Source: an uncultured Bacteroidales bacterium
GTDB lineage: Bacteria; Bacteroidota; Bacteroidia; Bacteroidales; P3
Assembly: GCA_944320465.1 (NCBI GenBank)
Contig: CALUHO010000006.1
Location: forward strand, 43,870 to 107,869
Reading direction: 5' to 3'
Length of the DNA stretch: 64,000 bases
Shown here: positions 14,587 through 41,862 of the stretch, in pieces
Position numbering within the stretch: position 1 is the first letter of the stretch
Layout: each line of letters begins with the position of its first letter
Translations under genes and position numbers: made by a program
The notes under the pieces: generated by a model
What the model was told of the DNA's origin: nothing
Seen by the model: only the letters and a program-made list of their open reading frames with translations
The model's database searches: none

Positions 14587-14793
14587 ATTCCACATTTCTA
14601 TACGACAGCAAGCCTGACGCAATAATCCATAAAAATGCCCGCACTCCGTACTTGAAGCATCTTCGCTGGCAAAAGTACGCAAAAGCTTTTACTTTTGCAT
14701 GGTGACCGTGCGAATAGGTGCACCGTTTCCCTCGCCATGCAGAAAGTTACATCCAATGCCAAGTGGAACACCTTCCTACATGCAACAGAATGA

Positions 14794-30103: not shown

Positions 30104-30530
30104 ATTTCAAATATTTAGTAAGTTCTTGTTTACGAGCTATATTGCCTATCTTCGGAAGGCATTGGAACGAATCCCGGTTTTCCGAACCGTCCCTTAAAAC
30201 GCTGCAAAAGTACTACAAAATCCCATAACAAGAAACAATTTTGCGAACCGTGGCCATACGCTGCAACCTGCAACTGGCGGAGGCCTTCTACCTCAGCCTG
30301 TCTATGCTGGAAGTAAGTGACATTATCTCCCAATCGGCATTACAAGCGGCATTATCAGAATAACCGATTTATGAATTACTTTTGCCTCCCGATTTTAGGT
30401 TTCACAGGGCATGTTCCCTAAATCAGGCGCATGATTTCGCCTTTATGAGAGTCATTGGGTGATACCCAAGGCATGCCGCATGAGACCTAAGGTCGGCCAC
30501 CTAATTTGTTACTAATCATCATTCTTCGCC

Positions 30531-32203: not shown

Positions 32204-33745
32204 ATGTTGTACCCGATTGGAATCCAGAACTTTGAAAGCATCCGCGAAGGAGGCTACATCTATGTGGACAAGACCGATTTGATTCATCAGCTCGCCACCA
32301 CCGGCAAGTATTATATCTTGAGCCGCCCGCGCCGCTTCGGAAAGAGTCTTCTGGTCTCGACGATGGATGCCTATTTTCAAGGGAAAAAGGATCTATTCAA
32401 AGGATTGGCCATCGAGAAATTGGAAAAGGATTGGACGGAATATCCGGTATTGCATTTGGATCTGAGCGGGAAAGAATACAATAGCATGGAAGACCTCGAT
32501 GCCCGCTTGGACAGGCATCTGAGCCTTTGGGAGTCGAATTTTGAGGTCCGCAAACGCTATCCGATGGCCGATTCCCGTTTCTCTGACATCATTGATGCTG
32601 CTTATGAAAAGACCGGCAAGCCCGTCGTGATTCTGATTGACGAATACGACAAGCCGCTTCTGGACTCGGCGGGCCACGAAGCGCTCCGGGAGGCGTTCCG
32701 CAGCCGCCTGCAAGGCTTCTACAGCGTGATGAAGAGCCAGGACGGCAAACTCCGCTTCGGATTCCTCACCGGGGTCACCAAACTCGGCAAGCTCAGCATC
32801 TTCAGCGGACTCAACAACCTCAACGACATCTCGATGAACTTCCGTTACGCGGACATCTGTGGCATCTCGGAAAAAGACCTGCACGCCTACTTTGATGAAA
32901 GCGTCCGGGAAATGGCCGAAGCCAACGGATTGACCCAGGAGGAATGCTACGCCAAGCTGAAAGACTACTACGATGGTTACCATTTCTGCCGAAACAGTCC
33001 AGACATTTACAATCCTTTCAGTCTGCTGAATGCCTTGAACCAACAGGAATTCAACGATTACTGGTACGAAACCGGCACGCCCACCTTCGTGGTCAAGGCC
33101 CTGCGGAGCGGCAAGTTCAACTTGGAGGATTTGACCCTGGAAGGCGTTCCTGCCTCGGCTTTGGGCGGGGTCAATGCCGACGATTCCGACCCGGTCCCCG
33201 TCCTCTACCAGAGCGGCTACCTGACCATCCAGAGCTACGATGAACGCTGGCAGAGCTATACCTTGAAATATCCTAACAAGGAGGTGGAACGCGGCTTCAT
33301 GGGATGCCTGGCCAAGACCTACGTCCCTTCGGCCAGCTACAACAGCCCGTTCTCGGTGCGGAAGTTCGTGGAGGACTTCGAGAAGGGCGATGCCGAAAGC
33401 CTGATGAGACGCTTCGAGGCCTTCTTTGCCGATGCCGATTACGAGATTGTGGGCGATGCCGAGCTCTACTTCCAGAATACCATGTACGTCATGTGCAAAT
33501 TGATGGGGCAGTACACCCAAGTGGAACGCCACACCAGCAACGGCCGGATGGACATTCTGGTGCAGACCGACAAGTACGTTTATATCATGGAACTGAAGAT
33601 GGATGCCAGCGCGGACGAGGCCTTGCAGCAAATCGAGGACAAAGGCTATGCCAAGCCCTTTGCCGCCGACCCTCGCAAACTCTTCAAAATCGGGGTCGGC
33701 TTCTCCAGCGAAACGAGGCAGATCAAGGAGTGGAAAATGGAATAA
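32204..33745 (+). CDS. AAA-ATPase-like + PD-(D/E)XK (PDDEXK_9-type) family protein, paralog A
   Basis: MLYPIGIQNFESIREGGYIYVDKTDLIHQLATTGKYYILSRPRRFGKSLL (the N-terminus of the Bacteroides predicted AAA-ATPase family), Walker B ILIDEYDKPL, and a C-terminal RMDILVQTDKYVYIMELK nuclease motif. Confidence 0.85.
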   Translation: MLYPIGIQNFESIREGGYIYVDKTDLIHQLATTGKYYILSRPRRFGKSLLVSTMDAYFQGKKDLFKGLAIEKLEKDWTEYPVLHLDLSGKEYNSMEDLDARLDRHLSLWESNFEVRKRYPMADSRFSDIIDAAYEKTGKPVVILIDEYDKPLLDSAGHEALREAFRSRLQGFYSVMKSQDGKLRFGFLTGVTKLGKLSIFSGLNNLNDISMNFRYADICGISEKDLHAYFDESVREMAEANGLTQEECYAKLKDYYDGYHFCRNSPDIYNPFSLLNALNQQEFNDYWYETGTPTFVVKALRSGKFNLEDLTLEGVPASALGGVNADDSDPVPVLYQSGYLTIQSYDERWQSYTLKYPNKEVERGFMGCLAKTYVPSASYNSPFSVRKFVEDFEKGDAESLMRRFEAFFADADYEIVGDAELYFQNTMYVMCKLMGQYTQVERHTSNGRMDILVQTDKYVYIMELKMDASADEALQQIEDKGYAKPFAADPRKLFKIGVGFSSETRQIKEWKME

Positions 33746-33748
33746 CTT

Positions 33749-35128
33749 TTAGTTCGCCTGAGGAGCATCTGATGTTCCTTTCCCCTCCGGTTTGCCCCAC
33801 ACTTTTTCCGGAAAGTGATAACTTATCGTACACAAGGAATTCTTATCCTCTGTCACGCACGAAAGGAGCTTACCTTGGGATGCAATATCTTTCACTACAT
33901 CGCTGGAGGGATGCCCATACCGATTGATTTTTCCGTATGAAACAAAATAATGTTCCGTCTTGGCATTCAAATCCAACAGCTTAGAACTATATGAATCGGC
34001 GGACCCATGGTGGGGGACTTGCACCATATCAAGTTGCGGAAGGTCTGACTCCAATTTTGCACATATGATATCGAATACCCTTCTACGGCATCCTGCCAAA
34101 CCGTATTCTTGATTCATATCCATGTCGCCCAAATACAGACATCCTGCTTTCTCTTTAATCTTCTTCGTTTCCCTTATCCCCGTACAATTATTTATACCCA
34201 GACAATCTTCCACATTAAAGACGGCTTCAGTATCCACAGGACCGGAATAAAGCATCATGGAATCCTTATTCAGGTCTTCTTTTCTGTTTGTCCCCAATGA
34301 AACTTTTCCATAAATATCTTTCAATAAATCAAAGTTCTTTTTCGCGGTCCCAGCCTTTTCTTTCGATTGGGATGGCGCAGCAAGCACATCAAGTATTTCC
34401 TTATAACTTATTTTTAAATCAAGCAAATTCCGCAAACCGGATTGCTCTATTTCTGCTTTAAATGCTTTATACTTTTCTTCAACATTAAAATTGAAGGGAG
34501 TGTATTTCCACAGCGAATCTATACGTATGCTCTGAAAGCTACCGATTTCCTTTCCATTGTCCAAAGCTGTTAAATCAAATCCATTAACAGATACGTCCTC
34601 GTTATCATCAAATGCGCGAACATAAATTATACTGGTCTTATCACCGAATACATCTTCATAAGAGCACATGATACGATAAAGATTCTCCAATTTATCCTTT
34701 CTGACATTCCTACTGGCTATTTCATATAGGAAAAGGAGCCGACGTATTTCCAGATTTTTATATAAAAAAGGTAAAAAGACCCTCTTCACGTTATGTTTTT
34801 TCCGGAGACTTTCTATTCCATTGATGTGATCCTCATGAAGATGAGATATGAATAAGGCATCTATGTCTCCAGAATGCTGTCTATCAAATTCATTCCCTAC
34901 AACATCCTGTACTTTTTCCTTTTTTCTAGACCCACAATCATACACCACACAGGCTTTGCAAATATCCCCATCCATGAAACGTTCCGCATAGAACGAACCT
35001 TGACCGACAGGATACAGTTTCCTCTCCAGTCGCAATGGGCCATACTTTGACAAATTTCCTTCCGAATCGACTACCCAAAGGCTCATTCCTGTAAAAGCGT
35101 CTATCATTTTCAAATATTTTCCTTTCAT
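33749..35128 (-). CDS. MBL-fold metallo-hydrolase, ComEC-type signature (paralog 1; canonical HxHxDH)
   Basis: FISHLHEDHINGI (34826-34843), CLYLGDMD and LDMVQVPHHGS. No signal peptide or TM segment. The gene is AT-rich. The ORF is open to 35197, but that extension overlaps the upstream sorting-domain fragment, so the Met at 35128 or later is more likely. Confidence 0.75.
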   Translation of the reverse strand: MKGKYLKMIDAFTGMSLWVVDSEGNLSKYGPLRLERKLYPVGQGSFYAERFMDGDICKACVVYDCGSRKKEKVQDVVGNEFDRQHSGDIDALFISHLHEDHINGIESLRKKHNVKRVFLPFLYKNLEIRRLLFLYEIASRNVRKDKLENLYRIMCSYEDVFGDKTSIIYVRAFDDNEDVSVNGFDLTALDNGKEIGSFQSIRIDSLWKYTPFNFNVEEKYKAFKAEIEQSGLRNLLDLKISYKEILDVLAAPSQSKEKAGTAKKNFDLLKDIYGKVSLGTNRKEDLNKDSMMLYSGPVDTEAVFNVEDCLGINNCTGIRETKKIKEKAGCLYLGDMDMNQEYGLAGCRRRVFDIICAKLESDLPQLDMVQVPHHGSADSYSSKLLDLNAKTEHYFVSYGKINRYGHPSSDVVKDIASQGKLLSCVTEDKNSLCTISYHFPEKVWGKPEGKGTSDAPQAN

Positions 35129-35175
35129 AGACAATAAAAAAAAGGGTACTCTTCTTCGAGTACCCTGAAATTGTT

Positions 35176-35412
35176 CTACATCACTAAAAGTTTCCACGTG
35201 TTCCCACTGTTACGAACAATGTAAATCCCTGCTTGACGGACAGGAATCCTATTATTGCTTTGACCTTGGTAAACCAACGTACCCACGGTGGTGAAGACGG
35301 ACACTTCCCCGCTTAGACCTTCCGTGAAGATGGTTCTGTCTTTGGCATAAACCCGACCATGCGGTTCGCCTTCAATGGCCTCGTTGCCCACCGAAGGATC
35401 TCGGTCGGCCAC
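35176..35412 (-). pseudogene. Detached T9SS C-terminal sorting domain (belongs to the upstream LRR gene, out of frame)
   Basis: VYAKDRTIFTEGLSGEVSVFTTVGTLVYQGQSNNRIPVRQAGIYIVRNSGNTWKLLV matches the Por-secretion-tail pattern. It has no ATG (GTG sharing the G of the LRR TAG stop). Its frame is open back to about 35544. Confidence 0.8.
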
Positions 35413-36995
35413 TACGTGAACCAGACGGACGGCAGGTCTTCGTTTTCCCCTGCATAGGCCGTAGCATACGGATAGGTGACTTCCTGTTGAGTGAACGTCA
35501 GCATGTTCCCATTCAGAACTGCCCCATGCCAGACCAAAACCCTGTCAATATCGAAATTCGGCAAAGAAGAGAGGTCGAACGCATCGTTTCCATCCAAAAC
35601 TACATTTAAACGATTATCTTCTGCATACAGAACCCGCAAATTCGTGTTGGACGACAAATCAAGGCTCGTCAGCTGGTTTTGCTCGCAGGATAAGATCTCC
35701 AAGGCGGTGTCCTGGCTCACGTCCAGAGCCGTCAGCTGGTTAATGTGGCACCACAAAGTTATCAAGGCGGTGTTCTGGCTCACGTCCAGGCTCGTCAGAT
35801 AGTTGCTAGAACAGGTCAAGTCCGTCAAGGCGGTGCAGCCGCTCACGTCCAAGCTTGTCAGCTGGTTGTTGTCGCAATTCAAGTACGTCAAGGCGGTGTG
35901 CTGGCTCACGTCCAGAGCCGTCAGCTGGTTTTCATAGCAGAACAACTTCGTCAAGGCGGTGTTCTGGCTCACGTCCAAGGCCGTCAGCTGGTTTTGCTCG
36001 CAGGATAAGATCTCCAAGGCGGTGTTCTCGCTCACGTCCAAGGCCGTCAGCTGGTTTTGGCCGCAACCCAAGGACTCCAAGGCGGTGTTCTGGCTCACGT
36101 CCAAGGCCGTCAGCTGGTTGTTGTCGCAATTCAAGTACGTCAAGGCGGTGTTCTGGCTCACGTCCAAGGCCGTCAGCTGGTTAATGTGGCACCACAAAGT
36201 TATCAAGGCGGTGTTCTCGCTCACGTCCAGAGCCGTCAGATAGTTGCTAGAACAGGTCAAGTCCGTCAAGACGGTGCAGCTGCTCACGTCCAAGGCCGTC
36301 AGCCGGTTGCCGGAGCAAGCCAAGTCCATCAAGGCGGTGCAGCCGCTCACGTCCAAGCTCGTCAGCTGGTTCATCTCGCAATTCAAGCCCGTCAAAGCGG
36401 TGCAGCCGCTCAGATCCAGGCTCGTCAGCTGGTTTTCCCTGCAACCCAAGGACGTCAAGGCGGTGCAGTCGCTCAGATCCAGGCTCGTCAGCTGGTTTTC
36501 CCTGCAACCCAAGGACTCCAAGGCAGTGCAGCCGCTCAGATCCAGGCTCGTCAGCTGGTTTTGCTCGCAGGACAAGAACTCCAAGGCAGTGCAGCCGCTC
36601 ACGTCCAAGGCCGTCAGCTGGTTGTTGTCGCAATTCAAGTACGTCAAGGCGGTGCAGCCGCTCACGTCCAAGTCCGTCACCTGGCTGTTTTTGCATTCCA
36701 ATCTCTCCAAAGAAAAAAAGTACTTGATGCCTTCAAAACTTTCTATTGAACTGTTATAACCAAGAGTAAGGTCTTTCACCCTACCTGCTTCTGCGCTAGA
36801 TAATTCTCCGCTATCATTGCTGTCATAATTATTACTAACATACTGACGAAACACTTCGTCCGGAAAATGTTCCTCGTCAATCGGCACGGGGAAATCATCG
36901 TAGCCGGGAATCCAGCTTTGGGCATAACCCCAGCAAGTCAGGCCTTGCAGCATGATGCCGCATAGCAACAGGTAAAAGAATCGTAATGTCTTCAT
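35412..36995 (-). CDS. Leucine-rich repeat surface protein (BspA/internalin-like, 21-aa Cys-containing LRR), C-terminally truncated by frameshift
   Basis: Signal peptide MKTLRFFYLLLCGIMLQGLTCWGYAQS, then about 17 consecutive LTxLDVSxxTALxxLxCxxNQ units. The stop TAG is at 35414-35412, immediately before the sorting-domain fragment. Confidence 0.85.
   Translation of the reverse strand: MKTLRFFYLLLCGIMLQGLTCWGYAQSWIPGYDDFPVPIDEEHFPDEVFRQYVSNNYDSNDSGELSSAEAGRVKDLTLGYNSSIESFEGIKYFFSLERLECKNSQVTDLDVSGCTALTYLNCDNNQLTALDVSGCTALEFLSCEQNQLTSLDLSGCTALESLGCRENQLTSLDLSDCTALTSLGCRENQLTSLDLSGCTALTGLNCEMNQLTSLDVSGCTALMDLACSGNRLTALDVSSCTVLTDLTCSSNYLTALDVSENTALITLWCHINQLTALDVSQNTALTYLNCDNNQLTALDVSQNTALESLGCGQNQLTALDVSENTALEILSCEQNQLTALDVSQNTALTKLFCYENQLTALDVSQHTALTYLNCDNNQLTSLDVSGCTALTDLTCSSNYLTSLDVSQNTALITLWCHINQLTALDVSQDTALEILSCEQNQLTSLDLSSNTNLRVLYAEDNRLNVVLDGNDAFDLSSLPNFDIDRVLVWHGAVLNGNMLTFTQQEVTYPYATAYAGENEDLPSVWFT
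35610..36680. repeat. 63-bp tandem coding repeats (about 17 units) of the LRR gene
   Basis: GTCAGCTGGTT and GCTCACGTCCA recur with 63-bp periodicity. There is a higher-order duplication (units 7-9 resemble units 14-16). Confidence 0.9.
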
Positions 36996-36999
36996 TGTA

Positions 37000-38346
37000 T
37001 CACGTTTGTTTTTTTATTACATATCCTGTAGTATCCGGCTCTTCCGATATGCAAAGCAGCCGTTTCGGGCTTTTGAAATCAGCTGTAACCTGTGAATCAG
37101 GAAAAAAATGCTTTCCCTTGCCACAGCTCACAAGGTCCTTGCTATGCGACAGGAAATAATATTCCACATCCGGGTTCAATTCCTGCAATTCGTGATTATA
37201 GGAATTGACAGAACCATGATGCGGAACCTGAATCATATCCAGCTGTGGAAGCTCGGCCCGCAACCGTATCCGGATGGTGGAAAGAACATCCGTATTCACA
37301 AGATCCGCATCCCCAAGATACAAGCAGGCCGCATTCTTGCCTTGTTCCCATTTCATGCTATCAAGTTTTTCCCCTGCAACCCTGTCGCCCTCTTCCCGGC
37401 ACACAGTCAAGGAATCTTTTGCAAAAGATTCCACAGGGCCGGAATAAACCATCAATGAATTGGAGTTGAGCCTGCTCGGCTCTTTTGTTTCTCCAATCTG
37501 CCGGTAAATGCATTTGAGTGCCGAAATTTCCTTGGATCTGCAGCCACGAAAAACAGCCGAAACGATGTCGGGGAACTGTTTCAAGACAGGACATTCATCT
37601 ACTAGCTTCTTGAACAGCTTCGTCCGGTTTTTCTCATCGAAATTGAACGGGATGTATTTCCAGCAACATTTGTCCCCACCTTTATCAGAAAAGTTCACTC
37701 CGATGTTGATAGCTTGGAAACTTCCTATAATATCGCCTGTTTTGAATTCGGCCAAATTCTTGGGAGAAGCAGGATTAATATCGCCCGTTTCGGGGTCATA
37801 CGGCTCCACATAGAGGATTTTTGTATCCTTGCCCCAATATTCTTGCGGATTGTAAATCAAGCTGTGCAATGTCTGGATATCGTTTTCCTTGGTCTTGGAA
37901 GTGGTTTTTCCCAAGGCGAGAAGGTATTCCAGCTTTTTAGTGGTTTTGTCTTTCAGCAAGGGCAAAACCACGCACTTGACATCGTACTTCTTTTTCAATC
38001 GGGAAATCCCGCTGATATGGTCCTCATCCAAATGCGAAACGAACAGGATTTCTATCTCCTCTTTGGGAGGCCGTTTCCCTTTCGCCTTGGGCTTCGCCAT
38101 CGTAGCCCCTTGCGCGGTAAAGGCGGAATCGATGATGTTCTGCCACTGCTTGATGGCTTGTTTCGAGCCGCAGTCGTACACGACACGAATGATATCGCCG
38201 TTGAAACCGGTCAATTCTTCCGTATAGAACGCTCCATGCCCTACCGGGTGGATTGTCCGGGTCAGGAATGGAGTCATGCCTGCCGTGAAAAGTCCATTCA
38301 TGCCTACAGAACTATGGCCTTGTTTGTTCTCTTCCATTTCCATCAT
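37000..38346 (-). CDS. MBL-fold metallo-hydrolase, ComEC-type signature (paralog 2; HxDxDH variant)
   Basis: FVSHLDEDHISGI (38017-38034), WKYIPFNF, CLYLGDAD and LDMIQVPHHGS. These motifs are colinear with paralog 1, but overall similarity is low. Its stop is 4 nt before the LRR start codon. Confidence 0.75.
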   Translation of the reverse strand: MMEMEENKQGHSSVGMNGLFTAGMTPFLTRTIHPVGHGAFYTEELTGFNGDIIRVVYDCGSKQAIKQWQNIIDSAFTAQGATMAKPKAKGKRPPKEEIEILFVSHLDEDHISGISRLKKKYDVKCVVLPLLKDKTTKKLEYLLALGKTTSKTKENDIQTLHSLIYNPQEYWGKDTKILYVEPYDPETGDINPASPKNLAEFKTGDIIGSFQAINIGVNFSDKGGDKCCWKYIPFNFDEKNRTKLFKKLVDECPVLKQFPDIVSAVFRGCRSKEISALKCIYRQIGETKEPSRLNSNSLMVYSGPVESFAKDSLTVCREEGDRVAGEKLDSMKWEQGKNAACLYLGDADLVNTDVLSTIRIRLRAELPQLDMIQVPHHGSVNSYNHELQELNPDVEYYFLSHSKDLVSCGKGKHFFPDSQVTADFKSPKRLLCISEEPDTTGYVIKKQT

Positions 38347-38458
38347 ACATAAAAGATTCAGGTTTGTTCACGACAAAAGTCCCGCTCGCGAACAGCCGGT
38401 ATCCATGCTATCCGGAGGATGACTTCAACCGGAAACCACCTTGGGTTGCCGCGATTCT

Positions 38459-38646
38459 AAGTATCTCTTGGCAAGAGATACTTTTGTACCGGCAATCCTC
38501 AATAAAAGAACATCTTACATGGACACAAGATGCAATCTTATGTGCGGGAGTTGCCTAGAAAGAGATACTCCACTTGCCGGAAATGACGCAGTTCCAAAAA
38601 CTTTCGTACTTTTGTCACCGTCTTCAAGTATCTCTTGCCAAGAGAT
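38459..38646. promoter_or_regulatory. Candidate invertible promoter segment (inverton)
   Basis: A perfect 21-bp inverted repeat: ATCTCTTGGCAAGAGATACTT (38463-38483) and AAGTATCTCTTGCCAAGAGAT (38626-38646). It encloses 142 bp with two TACTTTTG (-7 TAnnTTTG) motifs on the + strand (38479-38486 and 38607-38614). It lies between the recombinase stop and the MBL2 start. Confidence 0.45.
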
Positions 38647-38657
38647 TTGCCAACCCC

Positions 38658-39911
38658 TCATATCCCGTTTATAATCATCCGGTTGGCTTCGTCCACTGCG
38701 TTCATGTCGAGGGCGGAAAGGTAGATCCGCGTGACCCTTTCCGAGGCATGTCCCAGGCCGTCGCTGATGACCGAAAGCGGAACCTCCTTGCTCTTGGCCA
38801 GGCTCGCCCACGAATGCCGCGCCACGTACATCGTCAGCGGCATCTTCAAGCCCAGCATCCGCCCTATCTCTTTCAGCCTCTGGTTCACCTTATACTGCAC
38901 GTTCCGGTAGGACGAACGGGCATGGGCTTCCCCATCGCGGATAATGGGCAGGAGGTAACCGTCCCCTTGGCCGGATTGCGCCCTCCCGCAACTTTCAGAC
39001 TCCTTGCTGTTCCGCTTCCGCCACCTTTCCTTGTTCCAAACGGCATCCTTGGCGACAGAATCCTCCCCGTCAGCCTCTGAAACCGGCTTCAAAAAACTTC
39101 GCGTCCGCCCGCTCCGGACTTCATCGCGGAATCCGCTGGCATCCCTTTTCCTATTGCAATCCGGCAACCGCCCATCGGGTACTCCGGCATCGCGGCGGGA
39201 AAGCCGCTTCCCTCCCCACCGTGGGGCGGCAGCCCTCATCGCCTCCGCGTTCCGCCATAAAGCTTCCAACATCTCCTGCATCCGTCCCTCCCAGCGGATG
39301 AACAGCGGCCTGCCCGTCTTGCGCCGCACGTAACACAGGATGCCCTCCTTCAAGTCGCTCCGCCGCAGCCCGGCCATGTCCGCGAACGCCATCCCCCGCG
39401 TGTAGAAGCTCAGCAGGAACAGGTTCCGGGCGTATTCCAAGTCGGGATGCCCGTCCAAATCCAACTTCCGGATGGCTCGCAAAGTGTTCCTGTCCACCGC
39501 CCGCTTGCACGTCTTGGCCACCCCGGTATAAACCTCCGCAAACGGGTCCTGCCGCGGCGCGGGGCAAAGTTTGGCCTTGACCGCCTTGCTGTAGGCCGAA
39601 CGCAGGTTGCGGAGGTAGAAGGAGGTGGTGTTGGGGCAGAGGCCGCCGGTCAGCAGGCAGTTCTCGTACCTCTGCATGAGGCGGCCTTCCATCTGACGTA
39701 AGCCGATGTCCTTGCCGCCGAGGAAGCGGGAGAAACTGTTAAAGGTGGTCCGCCATATCTCCGCGCGGCGTTGCCTGCCCTCCGAGCGGGCATCCTCCGC
39801 CAAAATTCCAAGCCAGCACAGCATCGTCTTGGGCTTGCCGCGTCTTCCTATGCCCGCAGCCCCGTTCCTGCCTCCCTGCCCTTCCCTGTTGCATCGTTTT
39901 TCCATCATCAT
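38658..39911 (-). CDS. Tyrosine site-specific recombinase (integrase/invertase family)
   Basis: Catalytic region LSFYTRGMAFADM (Arg), YVARHSWAS (His/Arg) and LGHASERVTRIYL (His, Tyr). The N-terminal SAM-like core-binding domain has TTSFYLRNLRSAYSKAV. An Arg-rich insert of about 95 aa lies at 38958-39251. Confidence 0.85.
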   Translation of the reverse strand: MMMEKRCNREGQGGRNGAAGIGRRGKPKTMLCWLGILAEDARSEGRQRRAEIWRTTFNSFSRFLGGKDIGLRQMEGRLMQRYENCLLTGGLCPNTTSFYLRNLRSAYSKAVKAKLCPAPRQDPFAEVYTGVAKTCKRAVDRNTLRAIRKLDLDGHPDLEYARNLFLLSFYTRGMAFADMAGLRRSDLKEGILCYVRRKTGRPLFIRWEGRMQEMLEALWRNAEAMRAAAPRWGGKRLSRRDAGVPDGRLPDCNRKRDASGFRDEVRSGRTRSFLKPVSEADGEDSVAKDAVWNKERWRKRNSKESESCGRAQSGQGDGYLLPIIRDGEAHARSSYRNVQYKVNQRLKEIGRMLGLKMPLTMYVARHSWASLAKSKEVPLSVISDGLGHASERVTRIYLSALDMNAVDEANRMIINGI

Positions 39912-40320
39912 GATTCATTGATTTTGAACGGCAAAGATTGGCAAGGATGCCGTCGGGCACAAGGGCATAGAAACACTTCTCGGATTTCTTGCATTTTGAG
40001 CATAGATGGTAAAAACCAAAACGAAAACCCTATCCGAGCGCAAGGCCGATTGTCCACCCCCTGGCATCGGCACTAAGACTCGGCAATCTAATGCAAGGTT
40101 CCAAATCCCCTCCCGCAAATACCATCGCGGCTCTTGCCTCAAACGGATATGAGGCTTATCCTTGAAAGCTTGCATTTCGATGCGGCATCACGGACAACAG
40201 ACCGGAAGCAAAGGGCGGCATTCCGAAAAAATGTTAATTTTGTCTGTTGACAAAGAATCTCGCATCCGACAGATGATGCGCTTTTCCTTAGCAAATCGCT
40301 GTTACGCAAAAAATCACGCC

Positions 40321-41862
40321 ATGCTGTACCCGATTGGAATCCAGAACTTTGAAAGCATCCGCCAAGGAGGCTACATCTATGTGGACAAGACCGATTTGAT
40401 TCATCAGCTCGCCACCACCGGCAAGTATTATTTCCTGAGCCGCCCGCGCCGCTTCGGGAAGAGCCTTCTGGTCTCGACGATGGAAGCCTATTTCCAAGGG
40501 GAAAAGGATCTATTCCAAGGATTGGCCATCGAGAATTTGGAAAAAGACTGGACGGAATACCCGGTGCTGCATTTGGATCTGAGCGGGAAAACCTACAACA
40601 AGGCCGAAGATTTGGATATGATTCTGGATGTGCATTTGTGCCAATGGGAAAAAGCAGTCGGCATGCAAACCCGGTATCCCGAACCCGATCTCCGGTTCCA
40701 AACCATCATTGACACCGCCTACGAAAAGACCGGCAGACCGGTGGCCATCCTGATAGACGAGTATGACAAGCCGCTTTTGGACTCGGCCGGCAACGAACCC
40801 CTCCGGGATGCTTACCGCAGCCGCCTGCAAGGCTTCTACAGCGTCATGAAGACCCGCGACAGAAAAATCCGCTTCGGCTTCCTGACCGGAATCACCAAAC
40901 TCGGCAAACTCAGCATCTTCAGCGGCCTCAACAACCTCAACGACATCTCGATGAACTTCCGTTACGCGGACATCTGCGGCATCTCCGAAAAAGACCTACA
41001 CGCCTATTTTGATGAAAGCGTCCATGAAATGGCCGAAGCCAACGGGATAAGCAAGGAAGAATGCTACGCCAAGCTGAAAGATTACTATGACGGATACCAT
41101 TTCTGCGAGGAATCCGAAGACATCTATAATCCTTTCAGCCTGCTCAATGCCCTCAGCGGTCAGCGGTTTCGCGATTATTGGTACGAGACCGGCACGCCCA
41201 CCTTCGTGGTCAAGGCTCTGAGGAGCGGCAAGTTCAATTTGGAAGACCTGACTCTGGAAGGAGTGCCTGTATCCGCCTTGGGCGGGGTCAATGCCGATGA
41301 TTCCGACCCAATCCCCGTTCTCTACCAAAGCGGCTACCTGACCATCCAGAGCTACGATGAACGCTGGGAACGTTACTCGTTGAAATACCCGAACAAGGAG
41401 GTAGAACGCGGCTTCATGGAGGGCTTGGCCAACATTTATGTCCCCTCGGTACGGTACAACAGCCCGTTCGATGTGCGGAAGTTCGTGGAGGATTTCGAGA
41501 GAGGCGATTCCGAAAGCCTGATGAGACGCTTCGAGGCCTTCTTTGCCGATGCCGATTACGAAATCGTGGGCGATGCCGAGCTCTATTTCCAGAATACCAT
41601 GTATGTGATGTGTAAACTCATGGGGCAATACACCCAAGTGGAACGGCATACCAGCAACGGGCGGATGGACATCGTGGTACAGACCGACAAATACGTCTAT
41701 ATCATGGAACTGAAAATGGATGCCAGCGCGGACGAGGCCTTAAAGCAAATCGAGGACAAAGGCTATGCCAAACCCTTTGCCGCCGACCCTCGCAAACTCT
41801 TCAAAATCGGGGTCGGCTTCTCCAGCGAAACGAGGCAGATCAAGGAGTGGCGTGTGATATAA
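40321..41862 (+). CDS. AAA-ATPase-like + PD-(D/E)XK (PDDEXK_9-type) family protein, paralog B
   Basis: Same length (513 aa) and colinear with paralog A. By hand alignment there are about 16 mismatches in the first about 270 nt. The track ORF from 40162 is an upstream extension. Confidence 0.85.
   Translation: MLYPIGIQNFESIRQGGYIYVDKTDLIHQLATTGKYYFLSRPRRFGKSLLVSTMEAYFQGEKDLFQGLAIENLEKDWTEYPVLHLDLSGKTYNKAEDLDMILDVHLCQWEKAVGMQTRYPEPDLRFQTIIDTAYEKTGRPVAILIDEYDKPLLDSAGNEPLRDAYRSRLQGFYSVMKTRDRKIRFGFLTGITKLGKLSIFSGLNNLNDISMNFRYADICGISEKDLHAYFDESVHEMAEANGISKEECYAKLKDYYDGYHFCEESEDIYNPFSLLNALSGQRFRDYWYETGTPTFVVKALRSGKFNLEDLTLEGVPVSALGGVNADDSDPIPVLYQSGYLTIQSYDERWERYSLKYPNKEVERGFMEGLANIYVPSVRYNSPFDVRKFVEDFERGDSESLMRRFEAFFADADYEIVGDAELYFQNTMYVMCKLMGQYTQVERHTSNGRMDIVVQTDKYVYIMELKMDASADEALKQIEDKGYAKPFAADPRKLFKIGVGFSSETRQIKEWRVI

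Follow-up and report, generated by a model that had tools for sequence, protein, structure and literature searches.

The 188-bp element that separates a tyrosine recombinase gene from an MBL-LRR-MBL operon in an uncultured Bacteroidales genome is, to judge from comparison with its relatives, very probably a phase-variation switch (inverton) of the Bacteroidales promoter type with a local tyrosine invertase. The element lies in a 64-kb stretch of DNA, referred to here as the window. The flipping is deduced from related loci. Inversion of the segment is seen between L034 and L038 and again between L026 and L028, and the same repeat is found in a published PhaseFinder table; these three observations support the inverton that had been proposed in a sequence-only reading of this DNA.

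The 21-nt inverted repeat described in that reading (38463-38483 and 38626-38646) is 100% complementary, with 142 nt between its arms, and is positioned between the stop codon of the recombinase gene and the MBL-LRR-MBL operon (Table 1). This is the arrangement of an inverton, in which inverted repeats flank a short non-coding segment; no convincing coding sequence was found within the segment. Allowing up to three mismatches, the 21-mer has no copies in the window beyond the two arms, and it was not matched in any of 100 dinucleotide-preserving shuffles. The cargo-side site is in addition a perfect 25-nt palindrome (38459-38470 with 38472-38483), as had also been noted. Each site contains a 17-bp core, ATCTCTTG-[G/C]-CAAGAGAT, which is a palindrome save for its central base pair. 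The two cores differ only in the polarity of that pair, and the core is unchanged across all related loci. The predicted minimal recombination site is this 17-bp core rather than the 21-mer, which makes for a compact and testable site with a single asymmetric base pair. An internal half-site, AAGAGATACT (GTATCTCTTT in the sense of the recombinase gene), is present in mid-segment at 38560-38569, where it was first reported. The 10-mer has four copies in the window, all within the element (0.09 expected). It is kept in the close family, with TCTTT invariant, and L026, the distant element of capsule type, lacks it; one possible role is that of an additional binding site for the recombinase. The strong predicted fold of the region (z = -5.4) is merely the pairing of the two repeat arms and was therefore not counted as evidence for an RNA element, and an Rfam search of 38000-39000 gave no match.

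Table 1. Window coordinates of the predicted switch, its recombinase gene and the cargo operon
Feature	Position	Strand	Description
Cargo gene 3, MBL-fold	33749..35197	-	482 aa; HLHEDH motif; paralogue of cargo gene 1 (32% identity)
Cargo gene 2, leucine-rich-repeat	35412..36995	-	527 aa; LRR_4 6e-46; N-terminal signal peptide, MKTLRFFYLLLCGIMLQGLTCWGYAQS
Cargo gene 1, MBL-fold	37000..38346	-	448 aa; PF00753; no signal peptide; HLDEDH motif
Leader, switch to first cargo ATG	38347..38458	-	holds GACTTTTG at 38381-38374
Cargo-proximal site	38459..38483		25-nt palindrome; 17-bp core ATCTCTTG-G-CAAGAGAT at 38463-38479; central G 38471 (+)
Second TACTTTTGT box	38479..38487	+	overlaps edge of cargo-proximal site; not conserved
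Invertible non-coding segment (predicted)	38484..38625		142 nt between 21-nt arms; 150 nt between 17-bp cores
-7 box TACTTTTGT (TAnnTTTGY)	38607..38615	+	conserved; points antisense into recombinase 3' end as assembled
Recombinase-proximal site	38626..38646		21-nt arm; 17-bp core ATCTCTTG-C-CAAGAGAT at 38630-38646; central C 38638 (+)
Tyrosine site-specific recombinase	38658..39911	-	417 aa; stop codon 12 nt before proximal core

The assignment of the adjacent ORF as a tyrosine recombinase holds. The Phage_int_SAM_5 and Phage_integrase profiles both score above their cut-offs (PF13102, 46.9 bits, cut-off 22.3; PF00589, 28.6 bits, curated cut-off 27.1) and the catalytic residues are in place, which puts the protein in the tyrosine recombinase superfamily (PF00589). 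R172, K198, R365, H388 and Y397 are invariant across the alignment, down to relatives of 47% identity, and throughout the family a Tyr (Y362) stands in place of the first His of HxxR. Residues ∼218-316 (window ∼38964-39260) form a charged, low-complexity, lineage-specific insert of ∼100 aa in the catalytic domain. It is highly variable in length and absent from the 47-50% identical relatives (capsule-type, Muribaculaceae); the orthologues range from 347 to 443 aa. If, as we assume, the insert-bearing recombinase of L034 flipped its own segment, the insert is compatible with function.

When species-representative genomes were scanned with the recombinase, five loci were found in uncultured Bacteroidales, with recombinases 65-79% identical to that of the window; three of these are paralogous copies within Candidatus Pullibacteroides excrementavium. 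A further twelve loci came from looking up orthologues one by one, two of them on contigs already counted, and the close family comprises 15 distinct contigs (L002-L006, L034-L038, L040-L042, L044, L045). As in the window, the core pair of all 15 begins 12 nt after the stop codon of the recombinase orthologue or paralogue (65-94% identity), and the spacing from core to core is 150-152 nt. We infer from this adjacency that the neighbouring recombinase is the invertase that acts on the two sites. The exact recombinase protein occurs in three contigs, and the one that was compared, L001, is identical and has the same orientation.

With 14 related contigs the segment of the window aligns in a single orientation; with L034, which was met among the individual orthologue look-ups, it aligns as the reverse complement. 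The recombinase of L034 (P0001) is 94% identical to that of the window, and the same NTP-transferase and AAA-ATPase/PDDEXK genes lie upstream as at the window locus. Compared with L038, the inner 154 nt of L034 are reverse-complemented (95% identical as the reverse complement, 62% in direct alignment) and the flanks are collinear (92% identical on the left, 100% on the right). A more distant element that shares the core provides the second case. The 150 nt on either side of it are identical between L026 and L028, and the inner segment of the one is the reverse complement of that of the other; L030 agrees with L026. A 405-aa recombinase, 47% identical to that of the window, is encoded upstream of the L026 element, and downstream lies a capsule locus that begins with a NusG/UpxY-like gene, followed by GT4, Wza, Wzc and others. 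A canonical promoter (-33 TTTG and -7 TACTTTTG) is directed at the capsule genes in L026 and L030, but at the recombinase in L028. Since the core is all that the two ends have in common in the comparison of L026 with L028, crossover is placed within these 17 bp. Both orientations are thus found for an orthologous locus and for a distant element. The assemblies in opposite orientation derive from different samples, and the assembled flips are expected to reflect real reads, as the longest assembler k-mers should span a repeat of 17-25 nt. A metagenome scan for the core pair yielded 24 further loci, of which several carry the label human gut metagenome. At two paralogous loci from sample ERZ808242 (L010:1605-1773 and L032:11773-11941) the inner segments are opposite relative to a shared flank of 1.6 kb (94.5% identical); a single assembly would thus hold one ON and one OFF copy.

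Invertible regions with this repeat are also on record. The PhaseFinder table of Carasso et al., 2024 (PMC10939037, Table S2) includes a region of Phocaeicola dorei (NZ_LR699004.1, 1591511-1591722) with the repeat ATATCTCTTGGCAAGAGAT / ATCTCTTGCCAAGAGATAT; it belongs to another genus than the window and has the same core and a similar size, 212 bp compared with 188 bp. A related invertible region in B. thetaiotaomicron VPI-5482 is listed as well. A full-text literature search for the 17-bp core returned only unrelated primer matches, and the core is absent from the supplements of PMC8748976 and PMC11892184. Between the human-gut elements that have the same core and the window element, the inner sequences gave no alignment.

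Two TACTTTTG boxes on the + strand had been read as promoters of the switch. Both are present, at corrected positions (38479-38486 and 38607-38614), and one of them stands up as a candidate switch promoter. The box at 38607-38615 is conserved, whereas that at 38479-38487 is lost in L003, L004, L005 and L035. The conserved box is found ∼14 nt inside one core, at the same offset in every close relative, and its nn dinucleotide varies (CT, CC, TT) while its position stays fixed. A TAnnTTTGY box is also present in the distant elements L017, L021, L022, L026, L028, L031 and L033. The conserved box faces the cargo in L034, L026, L030 and L022, and in L034 both boxes do so. The earlier caveat that neither box of the window has a canonical -33 TTTG is upheld: AATG stands at the expected distance, and in this subfamily the -33 element is degenerate, with AATG or TTCG in place of TTTG. 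Relative to the inverton promoter (-33 TTTG / -7 TAnnTTTGY), the element has a -7 box of conserved position and a degenerate -33. The TANNTTTGY motif is common by itself, with 26 matches window-wide compared with 14.2 expected, an enrichment that appears consistent with Bacteroidetes promoter grammar. Divergent pairs of TACTTTTGC -7 boxes on opposite strands are also seen at 14669-14698 and 30204-30385 of the window.

The window copy is read as assembled in the OFF state, because the conserved box adjoins the recombinase gene and is directed into the 3' end of that gene. L028, where the capsule promoter faces away, is in the same state and L034 in the opposite one. No TAnnTTTG box was found in the inner segment in the sense of the recombinase gene and no terminator-like hairpin or site was found between the recombinase and the operon; hence nothing points to a second output from the switch as assembled. 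All of the six related loci examined first had the orientation of the window, and seven further contigs were likewise OFF. Across the close family the box points into the recombinase in 14 of the 15 contigs and towards the cargo in one (L034). Such a distribution is in keeping with an operon that most cells keep silent; it implies either a rare ON state or an incomplete OFF/ON labelling.

The predominance of one orientation would also be seen if the window copy, while belonging to a true inverton class, were locked or rarely switched and its operon driven by read-through from the recombinase gene or from a promoter outside the element. A candidate for the latter is GACTTTTG, confirmed on the minus strand at 38381-38374, outside the element. 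The leader that bears it is nearly invariant: positions 38335-38462, from the leader through the first cargo codons, hardly differ among the window, L003, L036 and L037, four loci whose invertible segments are merely 82-92% identical. This invariance could denote a regulatory leader or a recent transfer of the cargo. Read-through would be compatible with the lack of a detected terminator, and reduced switching with the ∼100-aa insert of the recombinase. However, the repeats are perfect and the catalytic residues intact, the flipped L034 is itself the insert-bearing orthologue with 94% identity, and GACTTTTG is without the TA of the -7 consensus. We therefore regard a locked copy as unlikely.

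The sequence-only reading had also raised the alternative that the two palindromes are operators for a dimeric regulator, which might loop the 167 bp between them with no rearrangement of the DNA. Each site is indeed palindromic, the left one being the perfect 25-mer, and the two can also be read as a 95% direct repeat. However, in both pairs of related loci the intervening DNA is inverted between collinear flanks, the sites of the close family always follow a tyrosine recombinase gene, and the same repeat is among the invertible regions of Table S2 of PMC10939037. Palindromy is, moreover, a usual feature of the Bacteroidales repeats listed there (many are palindromic, e.g. AGTTCTAAAGGAACTA and AAGTTCTATCAGAACTT), so that the palindromes lose their force as a caveat. 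This alternative finds no support in the related loci, and we consider it very improbable. Still harder to credit, and dropped, is an identity as attachment sites of an integrase-borne mobile element, which the recombinase would integrate and excise rather than invert: the recombinase belongs to Pfam families of phage and ICE integrases and two 87% identical AAA-ATPase/PDDEXK genes bracket the module, but the sites have an inverted register (central G vs C), enclose just ∼150 nt of non-coding DNA and recur at the same spacing ahead of unrelated cargo, and the rearrangement seen is an inversion.

As an invertible promoter, the element would operate as follows. The tyrosine recombinase encoded directly upstream would bind the two near-palindromic 17-bp cores, and strand exchange inside them, at a presumed cleavage position, would invert the ∼150-bp segment. 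Tyrosine recombinases require homology across the region of strand exchange. The single asymmetric central base pair (G 38471, C 38638) would set the two sites in inverted register, and this register would make the product an inversion rather than a deletion. The segment would carry one conserved -7 box, the putative active promoter. In the OFF state this box would adjoin the recombinase and point antisense into its 3' end, leaving the operon without a switch-borne promoter. In the ON state it would adjoin the cargo-proximal site, and transcription would cross the palindrome and a leader of ∼112 nt before entering the operon.

The closest parallels are the Bacteroidales tyrosine-invertase promoters, which include invertons of glycan loci and resistance genes (Yan et al., 2022; PMC8748976). 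The window element resembles them in having the invertase gene directly upstream, a non-coding segment of ∼150-200 bp between short repeats, a -7 TAnnTTTGY box inside and a co-oriented operon downstream. It differs from them in its cargo, which consists of two cytoplasmic MBL paralogues and a secreted LRR protein rather than glycan, fimbrial or SusC/D functions, as well as in its degenerate -33 element, the ∼100-aa insert of the recombinase and the conserved internal half-site. As for the capsule-locus switches of Bacteroides and Phocaeicola, the capsule-type relative represented by L026 and L028 has the identical 17-bp core and is seen in both states. Published inverton catalogues already include this architecture and even the repeat core, and the element is not new in concept; new here are the lineage, the cargo, the recombinase insert and the conserved internal half-site. 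It extends the class by a predicted subfamily, found in uncultured Bacteroidales (Ca. Pullibacteroides and relatives).

Among the Tsr switches of B. fragilis, BF2766 controls IVp-I and IVp-II (PMC4747536); BVU2677/2684 are the P. vulgatus examples (PMC12940148). BF2766 lies just upstream of one locus that it controls and also acts on distant sites with the same repeat. The core pair of the window is likewise present with no homologous recombinase within 2.5 kb in L010-L016, L018-L020, L023-L025, L029 and L032. These pairs would fit the BF2766 pattern and suggest trans-acting recombinases that may serve several switches, although the BF2766-type repeat motif, TACTTNNNANGTAANNGAA, differs from the window core. 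The Mpi switches of B. fragilis polysaccharide loci, from the same bacterial order, also gate surface-related operons by promoter inversion. Membership of the Mpi type was rejected, since Mpi is a serine recombinase acting with a ACGAACGTTTTTTGAAACA repeat, whereas the recombinase of the window is of the tyrosine type and its repeat is unrelated. At fimS of E. coli, the tyrosine recombinases FimB and FimE invert a promoter segment, and an adjacent, co-oriented recombinase gene gives rise to transcripts that meet the switch. That system has 9 bp repeats, a 314 bp segment, accessory IHF and Lrp sites and a sigma-70 type promoter, and bears no sequence relationship to the window element.

The operon is organized as described previously, with MBL, LRR and MBL genes all on the minus strand. 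Both MBL paralogues are without signal peptides. Searches of the two proteins against PADLOC, NCBIfam and PDB gave sub-threshold matches only, and these were of the nuclease type (LmuA, Avs1a, RTasMBL, ComEC and Apyc1); a role of the MBL cargo in defence or antagonism is speculation. The metal-binding motif of cargo gene 1 reads HLDEDH, compared with the canonical HLHEDH of cargo gene 3, and one of the paralogues may be catalytically altered. Different close-family loci carry different cargo: besides MBL-LRR-MBL, there is an MBL protein (384 aa) followed by proteins of 188 aa and ∼650 aa, an EF-hand/LRR protein of 860-890 aa, and a 229-aa protein together with a 662-aa WG-repeat protein. Since the cargo differs between loci that have the same switch, recombinase and switch together form a cassette to which different operons, with at least four unrelated sets of cargo in all, have been joined. 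If the switch controls the operon, expression of MBL-LRR-MBL is likely to be confined to a subpopulation, which bears on the interpretation of metatranscriptomes and on the functional study of these uncharacterised proteins.

A more far-reaching scheme, which we offer tentatively and think rather doubtful, would join these features into one phase-varied module. Two cytoplasmic, nuclease-like MBL proteins and a secreted LRR protein would make up a costly defence or antagonism function that is OFF in most cells. Antisense transcription from the promoter in its OFF orientation would damp the invertase and so stabilize the OFF state (cf. the orientational control of fimE), and the internal half-site, as an additional site bound by the recombinase, would bias the direction of switching.

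Two genes of the AAA-ATPase_like/PDDEXK_9 type, 87% identical to each other, bracket the module of recombinase, switch and cargo at 32204-33745 (+) and 40162-41862 (+). Possibly the module belongs to a larger cassette that is repeated, or is liable to be deleted through homologous recombination. L001, L034 and L039-L044 likewise have a gene of this type upstream of their recombinase.
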